From positions 253,465 through 317,464 of the forward strand of contig JAUSIS010000006.1 in the NCBI GenBank assembly GCA_030647355.1: a DNA stretch of 64,000 nt. Direction: 5' to 3'. The notes below the pieces were generated by a model that was not told the origin of the DNA, did not search any database, and saw nothing but the letters and a program-made list of their open reading frames with translations. The stretch comes from a bacterium. Lineage in GTDB: Bacteria; Patescibacteriota; UBA1384; VFKW01. Shown here piece by piece: positions 24,041 through 49,302 of the stretch (the first letter of the stretch is position 1; each line of letters begins with the position of its first letter). The translations under genes were made by a program, and so were the position numbers.

Positions 24041-24140
24041 TCGGTATGGTGGACCAGAACCTGAAAACATGGAACTCCCTATTCGACATAATCCTTGACT
24101 GGGCCCAGGATTTAAAGGGTATATACGATAGTATTGATAG
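24041..24140 (-). repeat. Repeat R1: tRNA-3'-end-like element, first of three copies of a conserved ~100-150 nt repeat
   Basis: The core TGGTGGACC (rc GGTCCACCA) and a GGAGTTCC stretch resemble the T-arm/acceptor/CCA of tRNA-Ala(GGC) at 49227. Aligns with R2 and R3 over about 100 nt. Confidence 0.55.
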
Positions 24141-24267
24141 TGAAGCCAAGTTAGAACCTTGACAATTTTTGTTTTGTAAGAAAAAGCGGGGGTAGTATAG
24201 GTTTTTGCCCGTGCTACTCCCGCCAGTGATGTCTGCGCTTCTAGATCGTCTATACCAGCCTGATTCG

Positions 24268-24531
24268 CTACTCAGAGTCAGGGAATACCTTTTCTCCCAA
24301 AGAGCCGTCTGGCCTCACCTTATGAACATCAGCCAGTTTGCCCGGCCCCTTGGATATCCCAACCACGGTGTCAAGTTCCTCGCTGTGGCCCTTGACAGTG
24401 GGTCCCTGAAATCCATGCTCCCCAAGCACCGAGCCGATAAGACCCGTAGCCGCATTGAGAGCATTCTGATCCATAGGGTCGCCTTTTGGACACTTCCCTT
24501 TCCGAGATAAGAAATTCAGCTTAACCATCAA
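24268..24531 (-). CDS. Hypothetical small ORF in a GC-rich (about 55%) segment. Coding status is ambiguous; a 101-aa plus-strand ORF at 24205-24510 overlaps it.
   Basis: Atypical GC content and overlapping ORFs on both strands. Possibly a gene remnant. Confidence 0.2.
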   Translation of the reverse strand: MMVKLNFLSRKGKCPKGDPMDQNALNAATGLIGSVLGEHGFQGPTVKGHSEELDTVVGISKGPGKLADVHKVRPDGSLGEKVFPDSE

Positions 24532-24702
24532 TCCACCTCCTCTCAGTGCAGTAATTAAATCTGAAATTCCGGATTTTCAACAACACAATGTTTTTTTATG
24601 ACTGTGGATCTCAATCTCAACGAATATTTTACCATATAACTGGCTAAATCGCAATACTGTGTAATGAGGTCGTTTACAATGAAAAGTTACAAAAGACAAA
24701 TA

Positions 24703-24850
24703 GGTATATACGAAAAAAGCAGGCCTAAACCTGTTATTTTCATGGTGGACCCAGACGATTTTTTTTTTGGAACCCCTTCTATGATGTGATCCTAGAGTGG
24801 GCACCTATATTAAAGCAAATATACGAAACTCAAGATAATGATACTAATTC
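24703..24850 (-). repeat. Repeat R2: second copy of the tRNA-3'-like repeat
   Basis: Shares GGTATATACGAAAAA..CAGGCCTAAACCTGTTATTTT..TGGTGGACC...ATCCTAGAGTGGGC with R3, and its core with R1. Confidence 0.55.
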
Positions 24851-24968
24851 CAGACATTCACCAAAAGAGGTCTAGGATTTTATGTACCTTAAAATATAAA
24901 AAAACTCCCTGCGATAAGTCTTGCTCGCAAGGAGGGTGTAAATGAGCTATCGCTCAGCTCTGTCCATG

Positions 24969-25727
24969 TCAAGGCGTTATGAGTACTAGGTACTCGTCGG
25001 CCTTGGGCAACCAGTGCTTATACCATTCCTCAGATTGCCCTATGGGCTTATGTGCCTCAATTACCGTGCGGGCTCCGAACCTGTCCTTTCCTGGCTCAGG
25101 CAGGACACCCGGCCCAACCACGATGCCTCCTTGTTTCCACCTGCCAATGCAGTACGCCTCGCTACCGGCAAACGACTTTTTGCCAAATAGTTTTGCGCTT
25201 AGCACCAGCTCCTTGTCCGCGACGTATAGACCAAATTCTCCACCCCGGCTTATGCACTCGACCAGCTTTGACGGGTCGCTTTTGCAGAAAACATAGATAG
25301 CAACCGCGTGGCTAGTCGGAGTGGAAGTCGCGTAAGCAAAGTTGGACTTCTCCTCTGGGTGGGCGATCCAGAGGAACTGATTGGCTCGATTCTCCAGAGC
25401 TTCCGCTCTCGCATGGAGTTTTTCATATGCGAGGTAGGCGATTGCTTGCCTGCGGGTTTCACAGTGGCAACTCTCCATGGCATACTTGATTCCGATTTCC
25501 AACCAATGCTTTGTGATAGCCGACAGGATAGCTCTAAAGTCCTCTGGAAGCTCCCTTTCCGACTCGGGGAGATCTCGCCACAAAGGTGGCTTTGGCCCAC
25601 GGATAGGTTTCCTACCTACCCAAGGCGCTATTTGGTCATCTTCTCGACGAGTAACAGGACCGGATGCGTCAAAAGCCCTTTGGAGAGTGTCGAGGTCAAT
25701 TTTGTCCAATCTCGACAATACTCTCAC
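24969..25727 (-). CDS. Hypothetical protein in a GC-rich (about 57%) foreign segment
   Basis: 252-aa ORF with uniform codon usage unlike the host. Flanked by R2 and R3. No motif recognised. Confidence 0.45.
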   Translation of the reverse strand: MRVLSRLDKIDLDTLQRAFDASGPVTRREDDQIAPWVGRKPIRGPKPPLWRDLPESERELPEDFRAILSAITKHWLEIGIKYAMESCHCETRRQAIAYLAYEKLHARAEALENRANQFLWIAHPEEKSNFAYATSTPTSHAVAIYVFCKSDPSKLVECISRGGEFGLYVADKELVLSAKLFGKKSFAGSEAYCIGRWKQGGIVVGPGVLPEPGKDRFGARTVIEAHKPIGQSEEWYKHWLPKADEYLVLITP

Positions 25728-25850
25728 CTCCCTTCATAACAGATTTTCTCAGCCAAACTACCGGGTATATTATACATAAAATATTAAGTTTTAGCAATAC
25801 TATCAAACACCAAAGGAGAGTATGTTCCAAAAGAGTTCCAAATCCGCTCG

Positions 25851-25995
25851 GGTATATACAAAAATAGACAGGCCTAAACCTGTTATTTTTGTGGTGGACC
25901 GCAACCCTGAATCATGGAACTCTTTTTTCGATGTTATCCTAGACTGGGCCCCTAAGTTAAAACAAATATATAAACAAGATAACAAACTAGACAAT
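25851..25995 (-). repeat. Repeat R3: third copy of the tRNA-3'-like repeat
   Basis: See R1 and R2. TGTGGTGGACC is identical to the 11 nt at the tRNA-Ala(GGC) 3' end. Confidence 0.55.
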
Positions 25996-25997
25996 AG

Positions 25998-26213
25998 TTA
26001 GGAGATGTCTAGTGATTTTATATTTAATGCCTTTAAAACACGCTGCAGTTTCTCATACGAAATGCTCTTCTCGCCCCGCTCGACTATCGCATAATAGTTA
26101 GCATTGATGCCCGCTTTCTCGGCCAACTCTGATTGGGTAAGACTAGCATTCTCCCTTGCGTCCTTCAGCCGTTTGCCAAGTCTTATAGAAACATTTTCAT
26201 CTTTGCTATTCAT
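25998..26213 (-). CDS. XRE-family helix-turn-helix transcriptional regulator
   Basis: IRLGKRLKDARENASLTQSELAEKAGINANYYAIVERGEKSISYEKLQRVLKAL is a classic HTH_XRE. Confidence 0.7.
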   Translation of the reverse strand: MNSKDENVSIRLGKRLKDARENASLTQSELAEKAGINANYYAIVERGEKSISYEKLQRVLKALNIKSLDIS

Positions 26214-26287
26214 ATAAGCATAATATAACAAATTTAGTCACAAATTTCCAGATACCTTACCTATATTAAATAACAACAAGGAGGAAT

Positions 26288-27016
26288 ATGCCAACACAAA
26301 CGCCATCGTTCAAAAACTATCTAAAGCGCCGACAAGCAATAATTGACACCGAAACCAAGCAACAAGAAGAACCGAAAGCTCTGGCACTATTCAACGAGAA
26401 GACTTTTTACCGCTCTTTCTTGAAAGATATGATTGAAGCTGAAAAAGAAGTTATTATTTACAGCCCGTTTATAAGTAAATTCAGATCGGACTTCTTCAGA
26501 GATACATTCAAAAAACTCAGGCGGAGAAACATAGATGTCTTTATCTTTACCCGCCCGCTTGATGAACATGAATACTTTATGAGATCGGAAATTAAGAGCG
26601 CTTTAAGTGATTATGAGGAGATGGGAGCATGTATCTTCTATCTCCCCGGGTCGATTCATGAAAAAGTGGCAATAATAGATAGGGAAATACTCTGGGAAGG
26701 GAGCTTAAATATCCTTTCGCAGAGAACCAGTCGTGAACTGATGAGAAGGACATCAGACGAAGAATCGGCAAAACAAGTTATGGCCCACTTGGGGCTAAAC
26801 AAGAATCTGGTTGAAGGATATAAAGACAAATATGAGAGAATGTATAGGAGTCTGGTCGCCAACGCAAAAGACGATCGCATGAAAAAAGCCCGGCTATTTG
26901 TTACCGGCGTGCTCCTCCCAATTCTCACTTGGTGGCTATTTTTCAACTTTAAGGTTATGATAGTAGCGCTGAAAGGTGTTAAATTAATAATAAGCTTTAT
27001 AAGATCATATCATTAG
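26288..27016 (+). CDS. Phospholipase D-family (HKD) nuclease-like protein with a C-terminal TM helix
   Basis: HKD motif HEKVAIIDREILWEGSLN (H-x-K-x4-D). RBS AAGGAGG. Hydrophobic C-terminus. Confidence 0.55.
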   Translation: MPTQTPSFKNYLKRRQAIIDTETKQQEEPKALALFNEKTFYRSFLKDMIEAEKEVIIYSPFISKFRSDFFRDTFKKLRRRNIDVFIFTRPLDEHEYFMRSEIKSALSDYEEMGACIFYLPGSIHEKVAIIDREILWEGSLNILSQRTSRELMRRTSDEESAKQVMAHLGLNKNLVEGYKDKYERMYRSLVANAKDDRMKKARLFVTGVLLPILTWWLFFNFKVMIVALKGVKLIISFIRSYH

Positions 27017-27024
27017 GAGTAATT

Positions 27025-27387
27025 ATGAATAAAGATAAATTTATACCCCAAATTCCTGAACCGACAGAGGAGGAAATCAAGCAAGCCATTTCGAAACTTA
27101 AGAAAAAGTATGACATTGCAATTCCCCAATCTGACGCCAAAGAGTATGTTAAGCTAACCAACGAGTTAGGATGGTGGTTAACTACGGAAAAAGCATATCT
27201 CTCAGATGAATGCATAACTGAAGATATAGCTAAAGAAGTTCAAGTGTTTGTTAAAAAGACACAAGGGAAAGATATCTCGTTAAAAGAAGCTCATATAGAA
27301 GCTGAGAAATCGTTAATATATGCGGTACCCCATGAGAAAGATCGTATTGCCAACGAAATTAGAGCTTTGATTGCTAAATATAAATAG
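27025..27387 (+). CDS. Hypothetical protein
   Basis: 120-aa ORF with RBS AGGAG. No recognised domain. Confidence 0.35.
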   Translation: MNKDKFIPQIPEPTEEEIKQAISKLKKKYDIAIPQSDAKEYVKLTNELGWWLTTEKAYLSDECITEDIAKEVQVFVKKTQGKDISLKEAHIEAEKSLIYAVPHEKDRIANEIRALIAKYK

Positions 27388-27388
27388 C

Positions 27389-27802
27389 TCAACTTAAAGC
27401 AGATTTTATTTTGTCTACAAATTCTTGAATATTACGCCCTTTTTGTTTTTCGATATCTTTTTGCCAAAATCTCAAAACCTTCCATCCTTCTTCGCGTAAT
27501 ATGTTGTTTACTTTTTGATCTCTTTTGATATTTTGCATAATTTTTTCACACCAAAACATAGAATATTTTTCTTTTTCACTTTCGAAATTTCTGCCGTGCC
27601 ACCAATCGCCGTCTACGAAAACGGCAATCTTTTTCTTAAAAAATATGATGTCTGGCTTCCCGTGCACCCGCTTGTCATGAATTCTGTATCTTAGTCCCTT
27701 TGCAAAAGAAGCCCGTCTTAAAATAAGCTCGGCCCTGGTATTTTTTGAGCGAATCTTGGACATAATCTCGCTTCGCTTTTGTTTTGAAAATATATCTGTC
27801 AT
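27389..27802 (-). CDS. vsr: Very-short-patch-repair endonuclease (T:G mismatch endonuclease)
   Basis: Vsr signature SEIMSKIRSKNTRAE...GLRYRIH...GKPDIIFFKKKIAVFVDGDWWHG. The longer track ORF to 28264 runs antisense into the methyltransferase gene. Confidence 0.8.
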   Translation of the reverse strand: MTDIFSKQKRSEIMSKIRSKNTRAELILRRASFAKGLRYRIHDKRVHGKPDIIFFKKKIAVFVDGDWWHGRNFESEKEKYSMFWCEKIMQNIKRDQKVNNILREEGWKVLRFWQKDIEKQKGRNIQEFVDKIKSALS

Positions 27803-27865
27803 TCTCGATTTCCTATTACGCACAAATTGTAGTATATTATCCTTATAAATTAAAGCAAACAATTT

Positions 27866-28750
27866 ATGAAAAAAAGCAAAGAAAACAAGTACAAGTTTAT
27901 CGATCTCTTCGCTGGAATAGGCGGATTTCATTTGGCTTTTCACAATCTTGGGGCCGAATGCGTTTTTGTTTCGGAATGGGATAGCCCTGCCAGAAAAACA
28001 TATCAAACAAATTTTGAAAAGATCTCCCCGAAGGTATTTAAAAACGGAAATTTCGCAGGAGACATTATGGCTATCGATCCAAAAGATATGCCGGATTTTG
28101 ATATCCTCACAGGAGGATTTCCCTGCCAACCTTTCAGTCAGGCGGGAAAAAAGAAAGGTTTCGAAGAAGCGAGAGGGACCATGTTCTTCAAGATTGCCGA
28201 GATCATCAAGGCAAAACAGCCGAAAGCTTTTTTTATCGAAAACGTCAGACATTTTATGAAACATAATAACGGGGAAACTTTTAAGACGGTTAAAAGAATT
28301 ATTGAGAAAGATCTAGGATATTCCTTTTTCCCTCAAATTATTAAGGCATCGGATTACGGACTGCCTACTCACCGACCCAGACTTTACATGGTAGGTTTCA
28401 AAGATAAAAGTATAAAATTCGATTTTCCCGAGACTAAACCGCTTTCTTTAACGATGTCGGATATTTTCGGCGGTGAATGCAATAAAAAGATCGGTTATAC
28501 TCTAAGGGTGGGAGGGAGACATTCCGGGCTTGCCGACAGAAGAAATTGGGATACTTATCTGGTAGACGGGAAAGTCAGAAGAATTTCGATTGAAGAAGGA
28601 AGAAAGATTATGGGGTTCCCTCAAAATTTTCTTTTCCCTGTATCTGAAACCCAGGCGATGAAACAGCTCGGTAACAGCGTTGCCGTAACTGCAATTCAAG
28701 CAACTGCGGAGAAAATTCTTGATGCATTAAAAGAAAGTGAGAAAAAATGA
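27866..28750 (+). CDS. DNA (cytosine-5)-methyltransferase (small, short target-recognition domain)
   Basis: Motifs I FAGIGGF, IV GGFPCQPFS, VI FIENVRHF, VIII QIIKASDYGLPTHRPR, X GNSVAV. Confidence 0.85.
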   Translation: MKKSKENKYKFIDLFAGIGGFHLAFHNLGAECVFVSEWDSPARKTYQTNFEKISPKVFKNGNFAGDIMAIDPKDMPDFDILTGGFPCQPFSQAGKKKGFEEARGTMFFKIAEIIKAKQPKAFFIENVRHFMKHNNGETFKTVKRIIEKDLGYSFFPQIIKASDYGLPTHRPRLYMVGFKDKSIKFDFPETKPLSLTMSDIFGGECNKKIGYTLRVGGRHSGLADRRNWDTYLVDGKVRRISIEEGRKIMGFPQNFLFPVSETQAMKQLGNSVAVTAIQATAEKILDALKESEKK

Positions 28751-29835
28751 GTCAACCGAAGATACATAAAGTAAACAAGGGGGAATGGAGCGAGTTTTAT
28801 ACTCTGCTTAAACTTTTAGCCGAACAGAGACTCTATGCGGCCGATGAAAACCTGGAAAAGATGCAGGAGATATTCTATCCCGTCCTGAAGGTTATTGAGG
28901 CCAAAGGAACAGATAAGGAAACTCATTATGAACTAAACGAAAAAGATGACGATATAAAAGTATTTTTGGCGAGCAAAGATTCATTTTTTACAGTTTCCAA
29001 AGAATCGCTAAAAAGTAAAATTAAAGAGGTATTCCTTGCTATCAAGAATTCAAATGCGACCTTTGCGATTCCCGTAGCCAGCAAAATACTCGACGAACTA
29101 AAAAGAGATCATGTAAAGACCATTTCAAGCCGAAAATCGGATATAGTTTTGGTTATACATGACATGAAAACTGGAACCGATCCCGAAGTAGGTTTCAGCA
29201 TAAAGTCCAGACTGGGAGGCGCTTCGACAATACTTAATTCTTCGGGTGCAACCAACTTTACTTATAAAGTGGAAGGATTCACGGGAAACATAGATGAGAT
29301 TAATTCGATAGTCAGTAGCTCAAAAGTCAGAGAGAGAATCAAACTCATCGAAGAAAAAGGCGGAGAACTTAAATACCATAGAATGGACAGTCCTATTTTT
29401 GAGTCTAATGTAAGAAAGATAGATAGCAATCTGCCAGAGATACTCGCCGAAGTACTTAAAATTTACTTTGCGGGCGAAGCTTCAACTATGCCAGAGATAT
29501 GTGAACTAATAAAAGCCCCAGGATTAAGTTTTACAGCCGACAACAGCTTCTTTGAATATAAAAGTAAGGAGTTTCTATTAAATATTGCTCTAGGCATGAT
29601 GCCCAACACCCTTTGGGACGGCCATCTCGAAGCTCACGGAGGATATATAATAGTACGAGAGGACGGAGAGATTGTCTGCTACCATATTTATAACCTTGAT
29701 CGATTCAGGGGATATCTTTTCGACAATACTAAACTCGACACCCCCAGCACTACAAAGCATGGTTTCGGCAAACTCTACAAAGATAACGGCGAATTATTCT
29801 TCAAGTTAAATCTTCAAATAAGATTTATTAAATAG
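28747..29835 (+). CDS. Putative type II restriction endonuclease partner of the methyltransferase (HpaII-like; tentative)
   Basis: 362 aa, translationally coupled (ATGA overlap) to the C5-methyltransferase, with a divergently transcribed vsr. The vsr-methyltransferase-REase arrangement and the ~360-aa size resemble the HpaII system. No catalytic motif was confirmed by eye. Confidence 0.4.
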   Translation: MSQPKIHKVNKGEWSEFYTLLKLLAEQRLYAADENLEKMQEIFYPVLKVIEAKGTDKETHYELNEKDDDIKVFLASKDSFFTVSKESLKSKIKEVFLAIKNSNATFAIPVASKILDELKRDHVKTISSRKSDIVLVIHDMKTGTDPEVGFSIKSRLGGASTILNSSGATNFTYKVEGFTGNIDEINSIVSSSKVRERIKLIEEKGGELKYHRMDSPIFESNVRKIDSNLPEILAEVLKIYFAGEASTMPEICELIKAPGLSFTADNSFFEYKSKEFLLNIALGMMPNTLWDGHLEAHGGYIIVREDGEIVCYHIYNLDRFRGYLFDNTKLDTPSTTKHGFGKLYKDNGELFFKLNLQIRFIK

Positions 29836-29848
29836 ATCGGGCATAAAA

Positions 29849-30415
29849 GTGAGTGATTTAGAAACATTTTTTCAACAATTTGAGAACTGGGTTCTTAAAG
29901 ACATGCGTCTAATTCTTAAAATTGAAGATGAAAATGGTAATTTAATAGAACCAGACAGAACAGCTTTTACATCTCGCAGACCATTAGTTGCAGCAGTAAT
30001 TCTAATGTGCTGTGCGATAGATTGCCTCGCAAGATTTCGATACGGAGAGATTGATCGTAATGTAGGCAGTTCGTTTAAAAACTTTGTTTTTGGTTATTTC
30101 AGTGAAAACGTTTCTTTTTCGGGAAAATCATATGATAAGCAAAAAATCTACAAAGGATTAAGGAATGCTTTAGTTCATGGCTATAGCTTAGGGAGAGATC
30201 TGGGATTGGTTCACCAGAGCTCCGAGAACCATCTTGACCAAGTTAACAATCGAGTTATTATAGATGTGTTTAGTTTATATTATGATCTAGAGACCGCCTA
30301 CAATAAATATAAACAAGAACTTATTGATGGTTCGTACCAAGAACAATTCAAAAGAAGATGGAGAGAATATCCCCTTATACAATTTATAACTGAAGAAAAT
30401 GTAAAAGGAAGGTAA
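29849..30415 (+). CDS. Hypothetical protein, possibly HEPN-like
   Basis: 188-aa mostly helical ORF containing RNALVHGY (an Rx4H HEPN-like motif). The start is uncertain. Confidence 0.3.
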   Translation: MSDLETFFQQFENWVLKDMRLILKIEDENGNLIEPDRTAFTSRRPLVAAVILMCCAIDCLARFRYGEIDRNVGSSFKNFVFGYFSENVSFSGKSYDKQKIYKGLRNALVHGYSLGRDLGLVHQSSENHLDQVNNRVIIDVFSLYYDLETAYNKYKQELIDGSYQEQFKRRWREYPLIQFITEENVKGR

Positions 30416-30440
30416 ATGCTGATTAAATCTGGAGTTCGAA

Positions 30441-33257: not shown

Positions 33258-33276
33258 CCAATTTTTATATTTCTAA

Positions 33277-33594
33277 ATGAAAAATCTACCACAACTAAAC
33301 CGTGAACAACTGAATGAATGGCGAGAAGAAATATTGGGACACCGAAGCAAAAAGTTTCCAGAAAGTTTTCTATTTGATCAACTTTTTGATGAGAGATCTC
33401 CATTGGCTAAAGACAAATTACTATCTAAAAGAATTGAAATCCTGGTTAAAAAATACCCAAAGGCAGATACAAGAAAAAGCTTGAAAGAATTTGTCCCCAC
33501 AGCATTGGAGTTTTTAAAAGAGAATGGTTTTATTGATGACGAAACTTACTCCAAAGAAAGCTTGAATTGCCAAATTTTTATTGAAAATTCTTAG
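33277..33594 (+). CDS. Hypothetical small helical protein downstream of the PHP-ABC ATPase
   Basis: 105-aa ORF 20 nt after the ATPase stop. Confidence 0.3.
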   Translation: MKNLPQLNREQLNEWREEILGHRSKKFPESFLFDQLFDERSPLAKDKLLSKRIEILVKKYPKADTRKSLKEFVPTALEFLKENGFIDDETYSKESLNCQIFIENS

Positions 33595-35142: not shown

Positions 35143-35392
35143 TGAAAATCATATCCTTTTTAACCTTAACCTCATCACCTTTTACCATTGTTCCCTCATC
35201 CGGATCGTTACCTTTGCTGTAAGAAACAGTGTAAACTATGTTCTCGTTTTCTTCATAGTTACCGAAAGCTATCTCGATTACCCGCTGAAATGTTATCATC
35301 TTGCCGGTAACTTGTTCCTCACGACCATTTACATAAATTGTGGTTGTTTTGTCGTGTCCTTGTCCTTCGTGTTTTTCTTCTTGGTTAGCCAT
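35117..35392 (-). CDS. Ubiquitin-like beta-grasp protein (multiubiquitin-family-like)
   Basis: 91 aa, TIYVNGREEQVTGKMITFQRVIEIAFG...VYTVSYSKG...GTMVKGDEVKVKKDMIFNATRTDKS pattern. Overlaps the E2-E1 start by 26 nt. Confidence 0.45.
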   Translation of the reverse strand: MANQEEKHEGQGHDKTTTIYVNGREEQVTGKMITFQRVIEIAFGNYEENENIVYTVSYSKGNDPDEGTMVKGDEVKVKKDMIFNATRTDKS

Positions 35393-38624: not shown

Positions 38625-38737
38625 AAGTTTAAAGCAATTAGTGCGTGTAGTATATATATAAAATATGTGGGTAGTGATTTTTTGTATTTTTAACCTTAAA
38701 TTCGGTCAAATTCCGTGTCCATAGGCGTACACAGAAT

Positions 38738-41368: not shown

Positions 41369-41792
41369 ATTATTCTCATAAATTCATTACCCTCCTTATA
41401 TGTTTGGTTTAACATAAGGTTGAGATTATGTAAAGAGAAAGGGCGATCGTGGCATATTGCCGTTGATCACCCTTCAGGATGAATCCATAGAACTGGAATG
41501 TTTTCCGACCCGCCATTAGCAGGCCGGATGAGTTGATGCTCTGGCTCTGTCGCCTGTTCTGAGCGTGATTCCCAAGCCAAACATGCTCAGAGTAGCCAAA
41601 CCGCTGACAACATAACCCAAAGTACCCGTCTGTGGCGCCTCTGGACCAGACAAGCTGGGACAGGTAGCTCCCACAATGATTATCACTGCCATAATGGTTC
41701 CGACCCAGACGCACATCGTATCCAGATCAAACGGCGTCCAAAAACTTAGAATGTACCGTATCACAGATACCACTCCTTTCTGGGCTGTCGCC

Positions 41793-42101
41793 CTATCTGG
41801 TTTCGCCAGGAAAAGTGCAGAGATAGCTGCTTTCAGTTGGGGATTCCATGATTACCTGGGTGCCCGGCTGAATTATGCATACCTCACCTGTGCTGTACAC
41901 AGTCCCATTGATCGTGATCCAGCCGTAGGTTACCTGGATATGTTCGAGACGCGAGATAATCCCAAAGTCATGTCTCGCCCCCAATTCCATGATGCCGGCC
42001 GACAGGGTTGCCATTGTCTTGCCCTTTGGAATATACCGGACGGCCTGTACTCCATCGCCGAATACCTTGTGTTCGATCAAACTCTTCAACACCTCCTTCA
42101 T
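41793..42101 (-). CDS. Hypothetical small protein (cupin-like?) in a GC-rich segment
   Basis: 102-aa ORF. A neighbouring 85-aa membrane ORF lies at 41516-41773. Confidence 0.25.
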   Translation of the reverse strand: MKEVLKSLIEHKVFGDGVQAVRYIPKGKTMATLSAGIMELGARHDFGIISRLEHIQVTYGWITINGTVYSTGEVCIIQPGTQVIMESPTESSYLCTFPGETR

Positions 42102-42336
42102 TGTCTTTGAATTCGAAAAACAGGCATCTAACCAGTAATTATATAATAAACGAGTGCAAAAGTCAACAGTTTGAAAACGTAATTAACTGGTTAAAGGCGA
42201 CCATCGAGTTACTTCCAAACCAAGTACCCTATTGACAAGCGATTTATGGCTGTGTTACGAATGGATTAACAGAATAATAAATAACCGAACACAAGAGATG
42301 TAAACTTTCTCTTTGTAAGGAGGGAGAAAGGCATGT

Positions 42337-42666
42337 ATGAATCGTCTTCGTTCCCTCCTTTGGTCTCTAATAATAGTCTTCTCATTGGTAAGTCCGGCCT
42401 TAGCCGCCGAATCGGCTGATGTAACCAGAGTCGAAAACTTTATAAAGAACATTATTCAGGTTCTCGTCACTCTGGCCGGCCTGATAGCAGCCGGCTTTTT
42501 CGTAATGGGCGGTATCGGCTACATCACCAGCTCCGGCAATCCGGAACATTTGGACAGATCGAAAAAGACGATTGTCTTCTCGGCGTTTGGGTTGGCAATC
42601 GCCATCGCCGCTTTAGTTCTATCAAATATAATTGCGGATATCGCGACTAAAGCATTCGGAAGTTAA
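42337..42666 (+). CDS. T4SS pilin-like protein (VirB2/TrbC-like)
   Basis: Signal peptide ...SPALA followed by two hydrophobic helices. Size and topology match conjugative pilins. Confidence 0.5.
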   Translation: MNRLRSLLWSLIIVFSLVSPALAAESADVTRVENFIKNIIQVLVTLAGLIAAGFFVMGGIGYITSSGNPEHLDRSKKTIVFSAFGLAIAIAALVLSNIIADIATKAFGS

Positions 42667-42671
42667 ATAAA

Positions 42672-43946
42672 ATGAAAAAACTCATTTCTGCAATTTTCAC
42701 TGCGGGAATAGTTTTCTTTGTGCCCATTCCCGCTTTCGCCGCAAGTAACAGCGAGGTTACCCATTTTGCCGATGAAACGCTGACCGGCTTTATTATTATC
42801 GCCTCAATCGCCACCGTATTCTTTCTTATTAGAGCCGGATACATATATATCACTTCGACTGGCAGTCCGGCGGCATTAGAGGAAGCCAAACATACGATCA
42901 AAAAAGCTTTGATCGGTCTTGTAATTGTTATAGCCGCAAGTGTCATTTCCTCAATTCTTTCCAATTCATTTTCTCAACCGGCTCCGGGAACGGATGCCAC
43001 CGCTATAAACTTAAGCCCGATACAACCGGCAGAAACGGACGGCTCACTGGCTCAACTGCTCTTAAATGCTATTTCCGGTTTCTTAAAGAATATCATCCAA
43101 TCGGCAACCAAACCGATTATAGATGGCATAATGAGTTTTCTGACCACTACGCCCACTTTAGCCACTAATTCGGTTGTCTTTAACTTCTGGCTGGTGATTC
43201 TGGGAATTGCCGATTCATTATTTGTCTTGGTGGTGGCTTTACTGGGTTTCCATGTTATGAGCGCTTCGTCGTTTGGTTTTGAGGAGCTATCCTTAAAAGA
43301 GCTTTTGCCACGCATCGGTTTGGCTTTTGTGGTTGCCAACTCTTCAATATTCATAATCGACTGGATGATAAAGCTTTGCCAAGTTCTGATTCATGCCGTT
43401 TTGGGAGCGACGGGAGGATTGGCGCAGGCCTGGATTATGAACGCCTTTGATCCGGCAGTACTTTTATCCGGCACGACAGCTCTTATCACCTTAATATTTA
43501 TGGTTGTCTTTATCGTCTTGGCGGTCGTTTTACTTCTTTTCTATATCAGCCGATTGGTAATTCTAGCTTTTGGCGCCGTTATGGCTCCGATTCTATGTCT
43601 TTTATGGCTCATTCCCAAAATGACCGGATTCGCCGAGTCCGCCGCTAAGGCCTACCTTGTCATGATATTTTCCCTATTCGTTCATGTCGTTATCATTCAA
43701 CTTGCTTCCGCTTTTCTGACCGTACCTGGACAAGTCGGCTCCAATCCGTTTATCTCAATACTGATCGGAATCGCTTTGTTTTCGATACTTCTAAAGAGCA
43801 GCTCGACCATGATTAATTTGGTCTTGTCATCGCAAACGAGCGGCGTATTTAGAAAATACGGAATGCAGATAATGAATGTGCTAAGTCCCGCTCCTGCCAG
43901 TAGCGGAGGAAAAGCGGCAGTAGCCAGAACTGCGAGGGCAAAATGA
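42672..43946 (+). CDS. Pilin-like N-terminus fused to a polytopic VirB6/TrbL-like membrane protein
   Basis: The N-terminal 100 aa repeat the pilin-like pattern of the previous gene. The remainder has 6 or more TM helices. Confidence 0.45.
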   Translation: MKKLISAIFTAGIVFFVPIPAFAASNSEVTHFADETLTGFIIIASIATVFFLIRAGYIYITSTGSPAALEEAKHTIKKALIGLVIVIAASVISSILSNSFSQPAPGTDATAINLSPIQPAETDGSLAQLLLNAISGFLKNIIQSATKPIIDGIMSFLTTTPTLATNSVVFNFWLVILGIADSLFVLVVALLGFHVMSASSFGFEELSLKELLPRIGLAFVVANSSIFIIDWMIKLCQVLIHAVLGATGGLAQAWIMNAFDPAVLLSGTTALITLIFMVVFIVLAVVLLLFYISRLVILAFGAVMAPILCLLWLIPKMTGFAESAAKAYLVMIFSLFVHVVIIQLASAFLTVPGQVGSNPFISILIGIALFSILLKSSSTMINLVLSSQTSGVFRKYGMQIMNVLSPAPASSGGKAAVARTARAK

Positions 43947-44452
43947 AAACAACAGTCGTACCGGCGCAAATTACAACCGTTGAAGACCGCATTGCCGGAA
44001 GCTTCACTTTCATTCAAATAGTTCTACTCATCATTCCCCTCATTTTAAGTACGGCTGTCTATGTGGCCGTACCGCCGCATTCGGGTTTGAGCTCGGTTAA
44101 AGTAATTGTAACCGTACTGCTCTTTTCCGCTTTCGGTGCTTTGGCAATCCGTATCAGGGGCAAGCTGGTGCTGGATTGGCTCGTAATTCTGCTAAGATTT
44201 TCATTCCGTCCGCATATTTATGTTTTTACCAAAAGCGATATTACCGGAAGAGAAGTTGAGAAAATCGAATCAATCAAAGCAACAAGAAAATCTCACTTGA
44301 AAATAAAAGTGGAACGCTCCGCTATAACGCCGCTATCGCTTGGCGAACAATCCAAAATAAACATTTTATTTGACAACCCGTCTTTAAGCTACCGATTTGA
44401 AATGGCAAAGAAAGGAGGCATTGATGTTTCGCTTACCTCGAAAAAAAACTAA
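43943..44452 (+). CDS. VirB3-like small membrane protein
   Basis: 169 aa with two TM helices, immediately preceding the VirB4 ATPase. Confidence 0.35.
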   Translation: MKTTVVPAQITTVEDRIAGSFTFIQIVLLIIPLILSTAVYVAVPPHSGLSSVKVIVTVLLFSAFGALAIRIRGKLVLDWLVILLRFSFRPHIYVFTKSDITGREVEKIESIKATRKSHLKIKVERSAITPLSLGEQSKINILFDNPSLSYRFEMAKKGGIDVSLTSKKN

Positions 44453-45044
44453 GGGTTCGGCCAGAAGCCAGATCGGCATTAAAGAAGTTAGAGATGATGT
44501 TTTAGTTCTATCCGACAATAGCTATCGTACGATTTTAACCACCTCTTCTTTGAATTTCGAACTGCAAAGCGAAGAAGAGCAGGACGCTTTAATAGATATT
44601 TTTCAATCGTTTCTTAACTCGCTCACTATTCCGATTCAAATTTTGATTCGCGTTCGAGAGCTGGACATCGAGCGCTACTTGGAAAATATCCAAACTTCGC
44701 GAGAAGACGAAGACCAGGAAGTATATAAAAAACAACTTGAGCATTACTGCACCTTTATCAGAAAGCTCATCTCGGGCAACAAGATATTATCCCGCCGCTT
44801 CTATTTGGTTATCCCTTATGACAGCAAAAGCTCGAAAAGCGATTTCTCGCTGGCCAAAGAACAGCTGATGCTCGAGCAGGAAATAATCATCAAGGGATTG
44901 GAAAAGATGGGCATGACGGCAAGACAATTAACCGGATTGGAGATACTCGACTTATTTTACAACTTCTATAATCTTGAACAGGCCAAAATTCAACCGCTTG
45001 TTCAAGCTATCGTGAGGCAAACGCATGAACAAAGTTTTATCTAA
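44424..45044 (+). CDS. VirB4/TrbE-family ATPase, N-terminal domain (separate ORF)
   Basis: RBS AAAGGAGG before ATG 44424. EVRDDVLVLSDNSYRTILTTSSLNFELQSEEEQDALIDIFQSFLNSLTIPIQILIR matches the CagE/TrbE/VirB4 N-terminal region. It is in a different frame from the downstream ATPase ORF. Confidence 0.55.
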   Translation: MFRLPRKKTKGSARSQIGIKEVRDDVLVLSDNSYRTILTTSSLNFELQSEEEQDALIDIFQSFLNSLTIPIQILIRVRELDIERYLENIQTSREDEDQEVYKKQLEHYCTFIRKLISGNKILSRRFYLVIPYDSKSSKSDFSLAKEQLMLEQEIIIKGLEKMGMTARQLTGLEILDLFYNFYNLEQAKIQPLVQAIVRQTHEQSFI

Positions 45045-46812
45045 AATTAAGCGAAATATCATCCGGCAAAAAGCAAAGCGCAAGGAGAAGCGGCAAGTTT
45101 TAAGTTTCCATGTCGGGCAGCAAGACCAGCTGGATTTTGTAACTTATTCGGGGCTGGAAGAAACCCCGAATTATCTTGTGATTGACGGACGTTACATTAG
45201 AACGCTTTTCATTTCCGGCTATCCCTACACCGCCTCCAGCGGCTGGCTTAACCACCTCATAAATTTTAATCACAATGTCGATATTTCATATCATATAGAG
45301 CCGGTTGAGGCGACTTATGCTTTGCCTAAATTGAATAGAAAAATCACCGAGCTTATGTCCACAAAAAGAGCGATGGAGCGGGACGGAAAGATTATCGGAG
45401 CGGAACTCTTAGATCCTCTGGAATCGGCGACCGAACTGCGGGATAAAATCCAGCGAGGACAGGAGAACCTATTCCAAGTTTCACTATATATTACCCTATC
45501 GGCAAAAAGCTTGGCCGAGCTCGATAGAGTAACCAAACTTTTGGAAACGGTATTGGCAACGAGGTTATTTTACACCAAATCGGCAATGTATCAGCAGTTG
45601 GAGGGTTTGCAGTCGGTACTACCCAGAGGAGATAACCAATTAGGGCAAAAGAGAAACCTTGACAGCTCATCGGCCGCTATGACTTTCCCTTTTATCTCCT
45701 CCGAATTCGTGCAGGAATCAGGCGTACTATACGGCATAAACCGCTCCAACAATTCCCTTGTTATTGTCGATAGGTTTTCACTGCCTAACGCCAATAGTAT
45801 CTTATTCGCTCAATCGGGAGCCGGAAAAAGCTATACAGCTAAAGTAGAAATTTTACGCCATTTAATGCAGGGGACGAAAGTCATCGTTATCGACCCCGAA
45901 CGGGAATACAGACGATTAGCCGATTCGGTCAAGGGGACATATATTAAACTATCGGTTCATTCCAAAGAGAAAATTAATCCCTTTGATTTATCCGTTAACG
46001 CTTTCAGTGAAACGGACGGGTTTGCCGACCATGTGCAATCGCTTACCGAAATCATCTCCCTTATGGCAGAAGGTTTATCGCCGGAAGAAAAATCGGTAGT
46101 CGACCAGGCAATTCTTAAAACCTACAAAAAATTCGGTTTATCGGTAAAAAAGCCGAGAAAAAGAGAACGCGATACTTATCCTTTGCTTTACGACTTTTAC
46201 ATAACGCTCAAAACTTTGAAGCAGACCAAGCTTTGCCAGCGCCTTGAGAAATATACCACCGGCTCTCTGGCCGAAGTATTTAATTCCCAAACAAACCTCT
46301 ACTTGGAAAATCGGCTGGTTGTTTTCGATACCAAAGACCTGCCTGAATCCTTGCGTCAGATTATGCATTTGGTTATCGCTCAATTCGTGCAAAACCAAGT
46401 CAAAAGCCATACCCAGAAACGATTGCTTGTAATAGACGAAGCATGGCTCTTGTTGGAGCATGAGGAAAGCGCAAGATTTGTGGCCGGATTAGTCAGACGT
46501 GCCAGAAAGTATTATCTTGGAGTAAGCATCATCTCTCAGCAGGCAAATGACTTTCTGCAAAACGCTTACGGTCGGGCTATCGCCTCTCAAAGCGCCTTAA
46601 GAATCCTTATGAGACAGGACACGACTACTATTAGGGGCGTAGCTCAAGAATTTAGGTTAAGCGAATATGAGCAGAAGTTTTTGCTAACTTGCGAACGAGG
46701 GGAAGCTCTGATTATCGCCGACCAGCACCATGTGGCCGTTAAAATAACCGCTTCCGAGAATGAACATCCTCTCATAACTACCGATCCGGCGGAAATCTTA
46801 AGAGGGAAATAA
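45025..46812 (+). CDS. VirB4/TrbE-family conjugative ATPase, C-terminal ATPase portion
   Basis: Walker A FAQSGAGKSYT. Walker B LLVIDEAWLLLE. Confidence 0.75.
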   Translation: MNKVLSKIKRNIIRQKAKRKEKRQVLSFHVGQQDQLDFVTYSGLEETPNYLVIDGRYIRTLFISGYPYTASSGWLNHLINFNHNVDISYHIEPVEATYALPKLNRKITELMSTKRAMERDGKIIGAELLDPLESATELRDKIQRGQENLFQVSLYITLSAKSLAELDRVTKLLETVLATRLFYTKSAMYQQLEGLQSVLPRGDNQLGQKRNLDSSSAAMTFPFISSEFVQESGVLYGINRSNNSLVIVDRFSLPNANSILFAQSGAGKSYTAKVEILRHLMQGTKVIVIDPEREYRRLADSVKGTYIKLSVHSKEKINPFDLSVNAFSETDGFADHVQSLTEIISLMAEGLSPEEKSVVDQAILKTYKKFGLSVKKPRKRERDTYPLLYDFYITLKTLKQTKLCQRLEKYTTGSLAEVFNSQTNLYLENRLVVFDTKDLPESLRQIMHLVIAQFVQNQVKSHTQKRLLVIDEAWLLLEHEESARFVAGLVRRARKYYLGVSIISQQANDFLQNAYGRAIASQSALRILMRQDTTTIRGVAQEFRLSEYEQKFLLTCERGEALIIADQHHVAVKITASENEHPLITTDPAEILRGK

Positions 46813-47426
46813 TGAATCCTGCTACTATCAGATATATTGCGCTTGCTTTCTCGATGAAGCAGGAGCTTAAGATTATATTCGGTACTCTAATCGTAATTAT
46901 TCTTCTGCCTATTTTTATGGTGGTTATGCTGACCCAAGCCGGAATAAATATCGTCTCCGGAGCACTCGTAAGCCGAGCAGAGCAAACGACCCAAGTGGAT
47001 ATTCACGATCCGTCTAACGGAGCAGTGATAGACCATGTAGAATCGACCGCTATTTGGCCGATAGGAGGAATCGTAACACTTGAATACGCTCAAACCTCTC
47101 CTTACCAGCTATTCCATACCGGAATTGATATAGCGGGGCCCGTAGGCGATCCTGTCGGTGCTTTTATGGCGGGCAAGGTTATTTATGCCGGAGAAACATC
47201 TTGGGGCTTCGGCAAGCATGTTGAGATAGATCATGGCCATCATTTTACTTCAATCTATGCTCATCTTGATTCAATAGCAGTCGAAAAAGGCCAAGAGGTA
47301 GAAGTCGGTTCTATTGTTGGCACCAGAGGCGATACCGGCTGGTCTACCGGCCCTCATTTACACTTTCAAATTAACGTCTTTGGCATACCGGTCGAACCTC
47401 GAATCTTTTTAACCGGCAACCCTTAA
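46812..47426 (+). CDS. M23-family metallopeptidase (cell-wall hydrolase of the transfer apparatus)
   Basis: HTGIDIAG...HVEIDHG...GWSTGPHLHFQI M23 motifs. N-terminal TM helix. Confidence 0.8.
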   Translation: MNPATIRYIALAFSMKQELKIIFGTLIVIILLPIFMVVMLTQAGINIVSGALVSRAEQTTQVDIHDPSNGAVIDHVESTAIWPIGGIVTLEYAQTSPYQLFHTGIDIAGPVGDPVGAFMAGKVIYAGETSWGFGKHVEIDHGHHFTSIYAHLDSIAVEKGQEVEVGSIVGTRGDTGWSTGPHLHFQINVFGIPVEPRIFLTGNP

Positions 47427-47518
47427 ATCTGAACCTTATATTTCTGTGGATAAACACCCTCTTGACACTATCACTAGAGAGATATACACTATTACTATAG
47501 TGATAATAAGGAGGGCAC

Positions 47519-47707
47519 ATGGAACTAATTCCCCAACCGAATAATCTGAACAAAGAGCAGGGTGGCAACGAGGTGATCTCTATTAATGAATGCAAACAAT
47601 ACCTAAGCGTATTTGATCTAAGCGATCAAAAGATTTTTGAAATTAGAAACACTTTGATAGGAATCGCTGGTAAATCAATCGACTCCTATCTGGATAATTT
47701 TATTTAA
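47519..47707 (+). CDS. Hypothetical small protein upstream of the recombinase
   Basis: 62-aa ORF with RBS AAGGAGG. An inverted repeat lies just upstream at 47462-47505. Confidence 0.25.
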   Translation: MELIPQPNNLNKEQGGNEVISINECKQYLSVFDLSDQKIFEIRNTLIGIAGKSIDSYLDNFI

Positions 47708-47716
47708 GTAGAAATT

Positions 47717-49291
47717 ATGGAAAGAGAATATACAAAAGCAGTAATCTATTGCCGAGTATCTTCCGAAAAACAAGTTAAGGAAGGGAACGGCTTAGACAGC
47801 CAAGAGCACAGATGCAGGAAGTATGCCGCTTCACTTAATTTAGAGGTGGAGAATGTTTTTAGAGACGAGGGCATATCCGGCGGGCTCTTTGATAGACCGG
47901 CGATGAAGTCCTTGATTGAGTACCTCGATAGCCATTGGCAAACGAAATACTTTGTAATCTTCGATGACCTCAAAAGGTTTGCTAGAGATGTGGAAGTTCA
48001 CATTAAACTTAAATCCGAATTAAAATGCAGGGAAGCTAAACTTAGTTGCTTAAACTATAATTTTGATGATAGCGCCGAAGGAGAATTTGTCGAAACAATC
48101 TTTGCCGCCCAAAATGAGCTTGAGCGCAAACAAAACAGACGGCAGGTCTGCCAAAAGATGAAAGCAAGGATAGAACGTGGCTACTGGTGCTTTTTTCCGC
48201 CTACCGGCTATGAATATGTCAAAGATAAAGAACACGGAAAAATACTTACCCCCGTCCAGCCAATTGCTAAAGTTCTGGCTGAAGGTCTAACAGCTTTTGG
48301 AGATAACCGGCTATTAGAGCAAGTCGACTTTCTTAATTATTTGAAAACAAAGAATTTCCATATCCTGATAGGTAAAGATATAAAACGTCTAACATTTGAA
48401 TATGTTAAGGGTCTTTTGACCCAACCACTTTATGCGGGGATAATTGAATACGATGAATGGAGCATTCCCAAAAGAAAGGGACACCATAAGGCAATTATTT
48501 CCGAAGATGTCTACTACAAAATACAAAATAAATTAAAACGGCCCGATAGGTTGCCAAGACCAACCGATAATCTTGAGTTTCCTTTGCGAAGAGTTATCAC
48601 TTGTTCTGTCTGCGGTATTAATATGACTGGCAGCGTAAACAAAGGAAAGTATAAATACTACGGTCATTATACTTGTAACAATAAAGATTGCACCGCCGAA
48701 CCAAAAAATGTCAGGATCGAAAAATTAGAAGGCGATTATATTCAGCTTTTGGAAAACATTGCGGTTGAAGAGCAGTTTTTGGCAATGAGCAAGGTTATAG
48801 TCAAGAGAATTTGGGAACAGAAAGTTGAAGACGCTTCCACCACCAGTGCGCTAAAAGAAACTGAGAAAAAAGAACTGGAGAAATTAGTTGATGATTATGT
48901 CGATCTTATCCCAAAAACAAGATCTGAGAGCATTAGGGCACGCTATGAAGAGAAAATAGAAACACTCGACAAACGTATAAAAGAGCTTGAAAGCGAAACC
49001 AAAAACAAAAAAGCACCCGATCTAGATGAGGCTCTTAATCTAACGTTAAAATTGCTCGGAACACCGGCGGAAACATGGAAAAACTCTGATAAGGACACGA
49101 AAATCCTACTACATAAGATGATTTTTACAGAAAACCCAACTTACTCTGCAAAAACAGGATTTGGAACACCGAAATTATCGCTCCCATTCCATATAAAACA
49201 GTATATTTGTGACTTTAACTCCGGTGTGGTGGACCTAAGGAGACTCGAACTCCTGACCTCCTCCATGCCATGGAGGCGCTCTACCAACTAA
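47717..49291 (+). CDS. Large serine recombinase (integrase)
   Basis: N-terminal resolvase domain AVIYCRVSSEKQ...SGG. Zn-ribbon CSVCG...C and coiled-coil recombinase domains. The 3' end overlaps tRNA-Ala. Confidence 0.85.
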   Translation: MEREYTKAVIYCRVSSEKQVKEGNGLDSQEHRCRKYAASLNLEVENVFRDEGISGGLFDRPAMKSLIEYLDSHWQTKYFVIFDDLKRFARDVEVHIKLKSELKCREAKLSCLNYNFDDSAEGEFVETIFAAQNELERKQNRRQVCQKMKARIERGYWCFFPPTGYEYVKDKEHGKILTPVQPIAKVLAEGLTAFGDNRLLEQVDFLNYLKTKNFHILIGKDIKRLTFEYVKGLLTQPLYAGIIEYDEWSIPKRKGHHKAIISEDVYYKIQNKLKRPDRLPRPTDNLEFPLRRVITCSVCGINMTGSVNKGKYKYYGHYTCNNKDCTAEPKNVRIEKLEGDYIQLLENIAVEEQFLAMSKVIVKRIWEQKVEDASTTSALKETEKKELEKLVDDYVDLIPKTRSESIRARYEEKIETLDKRIKELESETKNKKAPDLDEALNLTLKLLGTPAETWKNSDKDTKILLHKMIFTENPTYSAKTGFGTPKLSLPFHIKQYICDFNSGVVDLRRLELLTSSMPWRRSTN

Positions 49292-49302
49292 GCTATAGGC
49301 CC
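49227..49302 (-). tRNA. tRNA-Ala(GGC)
   Basis: Cloverleaf parsed by eye: acceptor GGGCCTA/TAGGTCC with G3:U70, D-arm GCTTAGTTGGTAGAGC, anticodon loop ATGGCAT, T-arm AGGAGTTCGAGTCTCCT, CCA encoded. Confidence 0.85.

Follow-up and report, generated by a model that had tools for sequence, protein, structure and literature searches.

The question raised by this locus is what fills the roughly 25 kb that separate two host genes next to a tRNA-Ala(GGC) gene, and what the nine-nucleotide sequence TGGTGGACC, repeated at the left edge of this region, represents. The locus lies in a stretch of 64,000 nucleotides (referred to here as the window) from a metagenome-assembled genome (MAG) of the Patescibacteria, which belong to the candidate phyla radiation (CPR). 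Our analysis points, with a probability of roughly 0.8, to a composite mobile island at positions 24047-49235 that was built at the CCA end of the tRNA-Ala(GGC) gene by large serine recombinases (LSRs). It had been proposed before, from the sequence alone (the original prediction), that the 3′ end of this tRNA gene holds an integrated island with conjugation and defence genes, and this proposal is supported by a conserved LSR target, by relatives with attP-type junctions and by contig breaks at the outer copies of the nine-nucleotide core.

The host genes end on the left with a Nudix gene (23478-24023, minus strand, PF00293), whose product is 100% identical to the NCBI MAG protein MDO8513374.1, and restart on the right with ackA (49354-50451, minus strand, PF00871). 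Composition shifts at the left and the right border alike. GC skew is around -0.25 to -0.35 in the host flanks and around 0 in the island (24-49 kb), and GC content is 39-40% in the host, 44% in the conjugation backbone and 53% in two small open reading frames (ORFs) at 24.3-25.7 kb. The borders and the patches of higher GC are as the original prediction had outlined. The sequence TGGTGGACC occurs five times in the window, compared to 0.19 expected occurrences, namely at 24047, 24743 and 25892, and where two tRNA-Ala genes called by ARAGORN have their 3′ ends: tRNA-Ala(GGC) at 49227-49302 (minus strand), which is the integration target and provides the B′ arm, and tRNA-Ala(CGC) at 60309-60385 (minus strand). 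All five copies share one orientation.

The right end of the island is formed by the gene for an LSR of 524 aa in its integrated form (47717-49291, plus strand) with Resolvase, Recombinase and Zn_ribbon_recom domains. Its ORF ends at 49291, 65 nt into the tRNA-Ala(GGC) gene on the opposite strand, so that the overlap noted in the original prediction amounts to 21 codons antisense to the tRNA. We retrieved 1716 homologues of this protein, and in the family alignment R13, V14, S15 and Q19, which include the R-x-S nucleophile motif, are invariant. An AlphaFold2 (AF2) model of a relative, an attP-form LSR, reached a mean predicted local distance difference test score (pLDDT) of 83 and showed long helices at residues 352-425 inside the zinc-ribbon region. 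The protein family therefore displays the complete layout of a serine integrase, with a resolvase domain, a recombinase domain and a zinc ribbon carrying a coiled-coil insert. Family searches of the window returned recombinases of the serine type only, and no tyrosine recombinase was found.

The same arrangement recurs in relatives. L-numbered metagenome contigs were retrieved with the LSR alignment, and in about 50 loci the 3′ end of the LSR homologue and that of a tRNA or transfer-messenger RNA (tmRNA) gene overlap in antisense. Within the group that is at least 51% identical to the LSR of the window (L019-L052), the targets are 13 tRNA-Ala genes (GGC, TGC and CGC), one tRNA-Leu gene, nine tmRNA genes called by ARAGORN and one uncalled tmRNA-like 3′ end (L042). 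At 37-44% identity, a target of this kind was seen in 27 of 43 loci (11 Ala, 5 Thr, 3 Leu, 2 Tyr and 6 tmRNA). The host DNA past the tRNA varies among loci. L008/L019 and L030 carry the same tRNA-Ala(GGC) with a near-identical downstream host flank (around 11511-11640) next to two different recombinase P arms, and are independent integrations at one host locus. These sequences define a large LSR clade aimed at the acceptor end of tRNA-Ala-like genes. An exact-pattern scan of the GTDB species genomes for the repeat returned only 7 matches in unrelated taxa, which is about the number expected by chance according to our own estimate, and among viral contigs scanned with the DNA pattern and with the LSR none was found.

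The three left copies of TGGTGGACC belong to longer repeats, R1 to R3, all on the plus strand. R1 (24047-24162; nhmmer E 6.6e-19) consists of the core and a P′ arm that encodes the peptide MVDQNLKTWNSLFDIILDWAQDLKGIYDSIDSEAKLEP followed by a stop codon. R2 (24743-24841) is a decayed P′ arm that encodes the same tail peptide, although with the frame displaced by 2 nt at a T10 run, and R3 (25892-25998) consists of core and P′ arm and encodes VVDRNPESWNSFFDVILDWAPKLKQIYKQDNKLDNS followed by a stop codon. The repeats are similar to one another over about 95 nt with 64-70% identity and have only the 9-mer in common with the tRNA. When read in the LSR frame, R1, R3 and the corresponding sequences of the relatives L021, L045 and L050 all encode the tail VD..W-N-S/T-F-F-D/E-x-I-L-D/E-W-A-P-x-L-K/R-Q-I, then a stop, with about 35 codons from the core (..L/V-V-D) to the stop. 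Mismatches in the core among the tail sequences are distributed over codon positions 1, 2 and 3 as 83, 60 and 158. The repeats are P′ arms, each holding the displaced 3′ end of the coding sequence of a serine-recombinase gene, and since in-frame repeats encode a conserved recombinase tail, attP lies inside the LSR gene. The original prediction had described three tRNA-like direct repeats and had explained them as att duplications. The match to the tRNA-Ala 3′ end and the common orientation hold, but the match ends after 9 nt and the remainder is recombinase-tail coding sequence; likewise, the repeats do act as att sites judged by the conserved target, the attP-type relatives and the contig breaks, whereas their remaining approximately 90 nt are P′ arms and not duplicated target. 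In the reaction of a serine recombinase the strands are exchanged at a dinucleotide, and for this reason the 7-9 nt in common reflect an identity of attP and attB that keeps the tRNA end intact and not a duplication made by the reaction.

Some further features of the repeats were noted. The T10 homopolymer in R2 (24759-24768) moves a GAAC motif from nt 26 to nt 28 and is either decay or an assembly error in homopolymer length. Small ORFs span the junctions at 25822-25998 (plus strand), at 24046-24162 and at around 24692-24850. The one at R3 has 58 aa, is preceded by the ribosome-binding site AAAGGAG and joins 22 hairpin-arm codons to the recombinase tail. Prodigal called genes of 59, 36 and 44 aa at R3, R2 and R1, respectively, on the Logan contig introduced below, and the displaced tail might be expressed separately. 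A weak fourth P′-like remnant, CCGGTGAACCAGAGCCAAAAAACTTGGAACAC, is located at 58307-58340 (plus strand; nhmmer E 0.12), where it reads VNQSQKTWNT in frame before it diverges. Two unannotated ORFs, one of them with a faint HEPN match, occupy the 2 kb that separate it from tRNA-Ala(CGC), and it could be a relic of an older element.

Relatives in the attP form show where the repeats come from. In L021, L045, L020 and L037 the LSR 3′ end is directly followed by a sequence similar to R1-R3 and not by a tRNA, and the gene callers assigned LSRs of 540 and 545 aa on attP-type contigs compared to 524-526 aa on contigs in the integrated form. L021 runs from the LSR through an R-like sequence to a helix-turn-helix (HTH) gene on the minus strand and then to a phospholipase D (PLD) family gene and orf120, both on the plus strand. 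The genes after R3 in the window have this same order, with identities of 54, 53 and 34%, respectively. Since this attP joins the LSR to the HTH-PLD-orf120 end, R3 (25892) marks the left end of the integrative conjugative element (ICE) proper. A relative on a 460-kb contig, L050, shows a complete, small integrated element of 9 kb in the order terminator hairpin, R-like attL, element, LSR and tmRNA, and the ends of this element share only TGGTGGA. The excised-form recombinases predicted for the window, the LSR body joined to the R1 or the R3 tail, had no match in an exact look-up in the protein collection. Downstream of its attP-type junction, L020 encodes a homologue of the HTH protein and, in addition to the first recombinase, another serine recombinase that is only distantly related (23% identity; 8458-10563). 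This element may use another integrase and thereby keep the first one intact.

The crossover can be narrowed down by comparing junctions. L037 (attP) and L038 (attR) share a common P arm and diverge right after TGGTGG, L005 breaks there also, and the two ends of the L050 element likewise limit the site; for this reason we infer from sequence that the crossover falls within TGGTGG (tRNA positions 71-76), which in the window is part of the attR core TGGTGGACC at 49227-49235 (plus strand). With positions counted from the T of TGGTGG, a G[A/C]AC motif sits at nt 21 in all 22 B′ arms (tRNA or tmRNA) and at nt 26 in seven of eight P′ arms, R1 among those with GAAC at nt 26, and R2 carries it at nt 28. 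In seven of eight cases the P′ motif also agrees with the core of the target type, GAAC being the tRNA-Ala type and GCAC the tmRNA type, with L050 as the exception. In attB sites of serine integrases the distal motif for the zinc-ribbon domain lies 5 bp nearer to the centre than in attP (PMC3783163), and the offset of +5 nt between P′ and B′ in the right-hand arms agrees with this rule. In the left-hand arms (B, P and hairpin) no convincing mirror motif GTTC/GTGC was seen by eye at the expected distance. The outer left B arm, the host sequence next to the core, occupies 24026-24046 (plus strand), as given by the overlap of two Logan contigs (below), and its inner 9 nt are alike in 7 of 9 positions to the P arm of the ICE by eye. 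With the attR core at 49227-49235, an attL at R3 (25892) and an outer attL at R1 (24047), att sites are present at both ends. L005 itself has an unusual structure (11510-21500). Its LSR (499 aa) has a frameshifted end and, after TGGTGG, is continued by the non-tRNA sequence TGTGTTCTCGACTCCGCTCGAACACAC, past which a second set of coupling ATPase, Replic_Relax and DUF3768 genes in inverted order and a type I restriction-modification system are found. L005 may represent two back-to-back elements or an unrecognised RNA gene as target.

Taken as a mechanism, these arrangements would fit the following course of events. The functional element is an ICE of 23.3 kb (25892-49235) with its attP within the LSR gene, about 35 codons ahead of the stop. 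Strand exchange would occur within TGGTGG, the complement of tRNA positions 71-76, so that the final few nucleotides of the tRNA, CCA among them, would come from the element and the tRNA would stay intact. Integration would split the LSR gene. Its body would remain at the right end and now stop after about 21 codons read antisense through the tRNA, by which the natural tail would be replaced by VVDLRRLELLTSSMPWRRSTN and a stop, and the tail-coding fragment would be left at the far end as attL (R3). R1 and R2 would be fragments of the same kind from two further elements, R2 being decayed, of which 0.7 and 1.1 kb of GC-rich ORFan DNA would persist. As the LSR would lose only a tail of about 35 aa, all catalytic and DNA-binding domains would remain.

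Evidence from the population comes from Logan contigs of run SRR13727527, which were assembled independently from the same population and are 100% identical to the window. Logan contigs are assembled with k = 31, and contigs shorter than 150 bp are omitted (PMC12424806). Four contigs cover 21975-24055 (L101), 24026-35565 (L099), 36004-49256 (L100) and 49255-54599 (L001), so that the breaks fall exactly at both outer cores, in agreement with the outer island boundaries of the original prediction. L101 and L099 overlap by exactly k-1 = 30 nt, namely 21 nt of host arm and the 9-nt core, and the last 31-mer of L100 (49226-49256) contains a single base from the P arm, then the core, then 21 nt from the tRNA. 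Branch nodes consisting of B arm plus core and of core plus tRNA body are what would be expected if the junction of host arm, core and tRNA, as an empty attB or with another occupant, also existed in the sample. The private unitig of this junction would be 51 nt long and would therefore stay unreported. The breaks imply that some cells carry the entire block while others lack it or have something else in its place. Each node could singly be explained by a variant at 24025 or 49257, which would need two coincidences. No contig break was found at R2 or R3; branching of the graph only at the outermost sites is compatible with the array behaving as a single unit, and the block 24056-49226 appears as the variable unit in this population.

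Two small units precede the ICE at the left edge. Unit A (24056-24742, 687 bp, GC 44%) carries orf87 (24268-24531, minus strand, GC 53%) and is without a family match. Unit B (24752-25891, 1140 bp, GC 47.5%) carries orf252 (24969-25727, minus strand, GC 53%), for which a search for homologues returned none but itself. Both start with a P′ arm and end with a hairpin arm. The left flank of R2 (24703-24742, plus strand) is a hairpin with a T-run and the left flank of R3 (25851-25891, plus strand) is the same hairpin arm, with 90% identity between the two over 50 nt. Read on the minus strand, the arm looks like a terminator placed immediately behind CCA, and so does the host arm in L050. The idea that the left flanks of R2 and R3 are remnants of recombinase coding sequence found no support, since their DNA similarity ignores the reading frame. 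The segments 24047-24743 and 24743-25892 are flanked by att sites, lie beside the ICE and contain only orf87 and orf252 without any recombination or transfer gene, as in a cis-mobilizable element (CIME). As in the Dehalococcoides arrays and the SCC composite islands, units A and B look like accreted units that lack a recombinase and lie next to an ICE. The island of about 25 kb proposed originally is therefore right in its outer bounds and wrong as one element; it is a composite of an ICE proper from 25892 onwards and two small units in 24047-25892. One possibility for the origin of the array is that the hairpin arm serves as a B-type half-site that regenerates attB; another is a local duplication of attL.

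This last possibility deserves to be weighed together with other explanations. If R1 and R2 had arisen by local duplication of an attL consisting of hairpin and P′ arm, for example by unequal crossing-over, with subsequent divergence and insertion of unrelated DNA, this would account for the R2 and R3 left flanks being 90% identical over 50 nt, which is above the 64-70% of the P′ arms, and for orf252 being an ORFan. However, R1-R3 differ mostly at third codon positions with the tail peptide kept, as expected for orthologues of diverged elements, the left flank of R1 is different and the two segments are otherwise without common sequence, so that we regard this explanation as doubtful. A single insertion of a 25-kb island in the manner of a tyrosine integrase, with the repeats as duplicated fragments of the tRNA 3′ end, would agree with the identity of the 9-mer to the tRNA end, its equal orientation and the fact that only the outermost sites look polymorphic in the population. 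An island of the Islander type should carry an intact target gene at one end with a displaced fragment of it at the far end, the fragment being present here in the minimal form of 9 nt, and a tyrosine integrase, which was not found in the window. Moreover, the match to the tRNA extends over no more than 9 nt, whereas the similarity among the repeats covers about 95 nt and codes for a recombinase tail, and the attP of a relative joins the LSR to the HTH-PLD-orf120 end and places the ICE end at R3. Coding periodicity and L021 synteny thus contradict a single insertion, and we consider it quite unlikely.

It might also be argued that the T4SS (type IV secretion system) genes are a fixed chromosomal system of the host and that the recombinase beside the tRNA is an unrelated or dead neighbour. 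A survey from 2025 described T4SS loci of Patescibacteria as chromosomal and relaxase-less and suggested their co-option for other roles, with no mention of recombinases and tRNAs (PMC12102498), and the attP junction of the present copy was not detected. Yet various tRNA and tmRNA loci, set in host flanks that differ from one another, carry the same backbone together with an LSR, which occurs in attP form as well, the composition of the island is unlike that of the host and contigs break at both cores, which makes a fixed system very improbable. Finally, the repeats could be minus-strand genes for small tRNA-like or tmRNA-like RNAs (5′ GGGCC..., GAGUUCC, ...GGUCCACCA 3′) with their own promoter and terminator. 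On the minus strand every repeat indeed starts with GGGCC and ends with GGUCCACCA, and a hairpin with a T-run comes next in R2 and R3. Against this, an Rfam search of the repeats gave no match even at E = 10, their folding energies were not better than those of shuffled sequences (z 0.01 to -1.65), ARAGORN called none of them and their substitutions track the codon positions of the plus strand. The Rfam result, the folds at shuffle level and the substitution pattern led us to discard this reading, to which we give next to no credence.

Several observations also weigh against the composite mobile island. The attP junction of this element is not detectable in the Logan contigs, since no contig breaks at 24047 or 49235 and a circle junction would have to show there. 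The empty site was not read directly in the database search, because no close host relative was present in the databases (relatives of the Nudix protein are at most 51% identical and lie in unrelated neighbourhoods), and its presence is deduced from the end coordinates of contigs. The left flanks of R2 and R3 are hairpin arms and not recombinase coding sequence, and the canonical LSR rule that only attP and attB recombine does not by itself explain a tandem array. In the AF2 model the tail of the attP-form LSR has a pLDDT below 50, which is uninformative on docking and gives no support for a function of the tail swap. Moreover, no directionality factor was identified in the element, and family searches of the window proteins returned no canonical MOB relaxase but only a Replic_Relax protein (PF13814) adjoining the coupling protein.

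The genes of the ICE (25892-49235) were identified by Pfam, NCBIfam and PADLOC family searches of the window proteins, in which all genes named in the original prediction were found again (Nudix, HTH, PLD, Vsr, Dcm, HpaII, PHP-ATPase of the TrlF family, DUF6527/BubE, DUF6791-ThiF E1, Multi_ubiq, LexA/S24, DUF3768, Replic_Relax, type IV coupling protein, VirB2-like pilin, pilin-TrbL, PrgI, TraC-like, VirB4, M23 and LSR). The first gene encodes an HTH_3 regulator (25998-26231, minus strand, Pfam match), whose homologue adjoins attP in L021. It is followed by 10 kb of cargo. A PLD-family nuclease (26288-27016, plus strand, PF13091) is similar to MkoC/DrmC. Vsr (27389-27802, minus strand, PF03852, E 3.3e-27), Dcm (27932-28750, plus strand, PF00145, E 7.6e-78) and an HpaII endonuclease (28747-29835, plus strand, PF09561, E 6e-113), with limits taken from the gene calls on contig L099, provide the C5 methyltransferase, the cognate endonuclease and the very-short-patch repair nuclease of an HpaII-like type II restriction-modification system. 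A PHP-AAA ATPase of the TrlF family (30441-33257, plus strand; NF045780, 514.7 bits with a cut-off of 350) also matches the Ppl model and is a Ppl-related defence candidate, and an operon of DUF6527/BubE, DUF6791-ThiF E1 and Multi_ubiq genes (33591-35392, minus strand, family matches) encodes a ubiquitin-like (Ubl) conjugation system. The cargo closes with a LexA-like S24 repressor (35418-36035, minus strand, family match). The 438-nt gap between L099 and L100 (35566-36003) falls inside and upstream of this gene, which suggests a second variable or shared segment.

The backbone of the ICE comprises a DUF3768 protein (36174-36593, plus strand), which is kept in related elements, the Replic_Relax protein as a candidate relaxase (37836-38624, minus strand), the coupling ATPase (38738-41368, minus strand, family match), the T4SS genes for VirB2-like pilin, pilin-TrbL/VirB6, PrgI/VirB3, TraC-like protein, VirB4 and M23 hydrolase (42337-47426, plus strand; Pfam and NCBIfam), a 62-aa ORF directly upstream of the recombinase gene (47519-47707, plus strand) and the LSR. 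The pair of Replic_Relax and coupling ATPase recurs in L005, L008, L032 and L039, and the T4SS genes are 60-85% identical to their counterparts in related loci. Many metagenome contigs share this backbone as DUF3768, Replic_Relax, coupling ATPase, pilin, pilin-TrbL, PrgI, TraC-like, VirB4, M23, an ORF of 62-69 aa and LSR. Of the parts expected of an ICE, VirB4, coupling protein, channel and hydrolase for mating-pair formation (MPF) are present, as is a site-specific recombinase at one end, the LSR. The 62-aa ORF is found in all related loci, had no match in the family searches and is a candidate for a recombination directionality factor. In a related ICE on L002/L003 (LSR 77% identical), reverse-transcriptase genes (RVT_1) and a bAvd gene (1624-3089) lie between the coupling ATPase and pilin genes, and look like a diversity-generating retroelement carried by an ICE.

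A number of known systems share parts of this architecture. SCCmec and other SCC islands are inserted at the 3′ end of rlmH/orfX by the CcrAB serine recombinases. They resemble the present island in the insertion at the 3′ end of a conserved gene and in forming arrays of elements and recombinase-less pseudo-elements with short direct repeats in between, but their target is a protein gene, and they are not known to carry conjugation genes or a recombinase gene that spans the attachment site. The integrases of SSV-type archaeal fuselloviruses contain attP inside the integrase gene, so that integration into a tRNA gene partitions the ORF. The split upon integration is a common feature, whereas those enzymes are tyrosine recombinases of archaeal viruses from which a large part is removed, and here a serine LSR would trade a tail of about 35 aa for a tRNA-antisense tail. 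In the integration-dependent immunity of mycobacteriophages, reportedly worked out by Broussard et al. in 2013, attP is said to lie in the 3′ end of the phage repressor gene, with a functional consequence that was demonstrated. There too integration alters the C-terminus of a gene product, but the gene is that of a repressor and the integrase a tyrosine recombinase, while here it is the recombinase gene itself and the consequence is hypothetical. MPF-FATA ICEs of monoderms, and the ICE/CIME accretion of Streptococcus thermophilus, feature att-flanked units without recombination or transfer genes beside an ICE. VirB4, coupling protein, VirB6-like and VirB3-like proteins and a cell-wall hydrolase are shared with MPF-FATA ICEs. 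The present element differs by VirB2-like pilins, by Replic_Relax in place of a recognised MOB relaxase, by a serine instead of a tyrosine recombinase and by its CPR host.

As of a survey from 2020, serine integrases were not known for targeting tRNA genes (PMC7192596). Exceptions are the small recombinase of the filamentous phages phiRSM (PMC4471427) and the ssrA islands of Dehalococcoides (PMC3146451). The attP of phiRSM is made up of 13 nt of a tRNA-Ser 3′ end, and it thus shares the use of a tRNA-gene 3′ end by a serine recombinase with the present island, but its enzyme belongs to the small resolvase/invertase recombinases and its attP is flanked by two genes (PMC4471427). The Dehalococcoides islands encode the CcrB-like serine integrase DsiB, are inserted in the T-loop with a 20-bp repeat, and are mobilizable without a T4SS of their own (PMC3146451). 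In common are a large serine recombinase of about 540 aa beside a tRNA-like (tmRNA) target, a short direct repeat of its 3′ end and tandem islands including units without integrase (PMC3146451). Here, in contrast, exchange would take place in the last 6 nt (the CCA end), where the homology breaks, 7-9 nt are shared in place of a 20-bp repeat from the T-loop, the element has a complete set of T4SS genes and its attP is located within the recombinase ORF. For the DsiB islands a split integrase gene was not described; they are set apart here by that description and not by the DsiB sequence.

ICEs, integration at tRNA ends, tandem accretion and defence cargo are thus already known. New are a broad LSR clade that specialises in the CCA end of tRNA-Ala, of tmRNA and of a few further tRNAs, an LSR ORF that spans attP and whose C-terminal tail would be swapped by integration, the three repeats as displaced recombinase tails, and a T4SS of the Patescibacteria type with VirB2-like pilins on a site-specific mobile element, with Replic_Relax beside the coupling ATPase. 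Serine integrases are valued as tools for genome engineering, and natural attP/attB pairs are deducible for dozens of members of this diverse clade, which reads the acceptor/T-arm end of its targets. As the LSR gene spans its own attP, integration would change the C-terminus of the protein, which makes this change a simple candidate for state-dependent control of directionality. Likewise, because the T4SS set is found on a mobile site-specific element beside Replic_Relax, conjugation in CPR bacteria becomes directly testable, and with their cargo such elements would ferry defence systems among the tiny CPR genomes. More tentatively, and as an idea that we hold to be possible rather than probable, LSR isoforms fixed by state (a conserved amphipathic tail in the circle, a tRNA-antisense tail when integrated and an attL fragment perhaps expressed from NTG-GTG codons) could be a built-in switch of directionality or regulation in this clade targeting the CCA end of tRNA-Ala and tmRNA genes, and the VirB2-pilin T4SS of Patescibacteria could be a genuine conjugation machine with Replic_Relax as the "missing" relaxase, at least in this lineage.

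Two further observations concern the host flank to the right of the island. A cobalamin riboswitch was detected at 54457-54633 (plus strand) with 41.5 bits, over the Rfam gathering score. In the region 60250-60441 (minus strand), tRNA-Ala(CGC) sits between the two halves of another tRNA-like sequence, in which an acceptor arm, a D arm and a T arm can be recognised and the anticodon may be UGU. ARAGORN run with introns finds the inner tRNA-Ala only. The halves are joined via a stem of 12-13 bp that bears the entire tRNA-Ala at its tip, and the 199-nt fold has an energy of -74.2 kcal/mol (z = -3.2), so that this region may be a tRNA gene with an insertion of about 115 nt containing a second tRNA.

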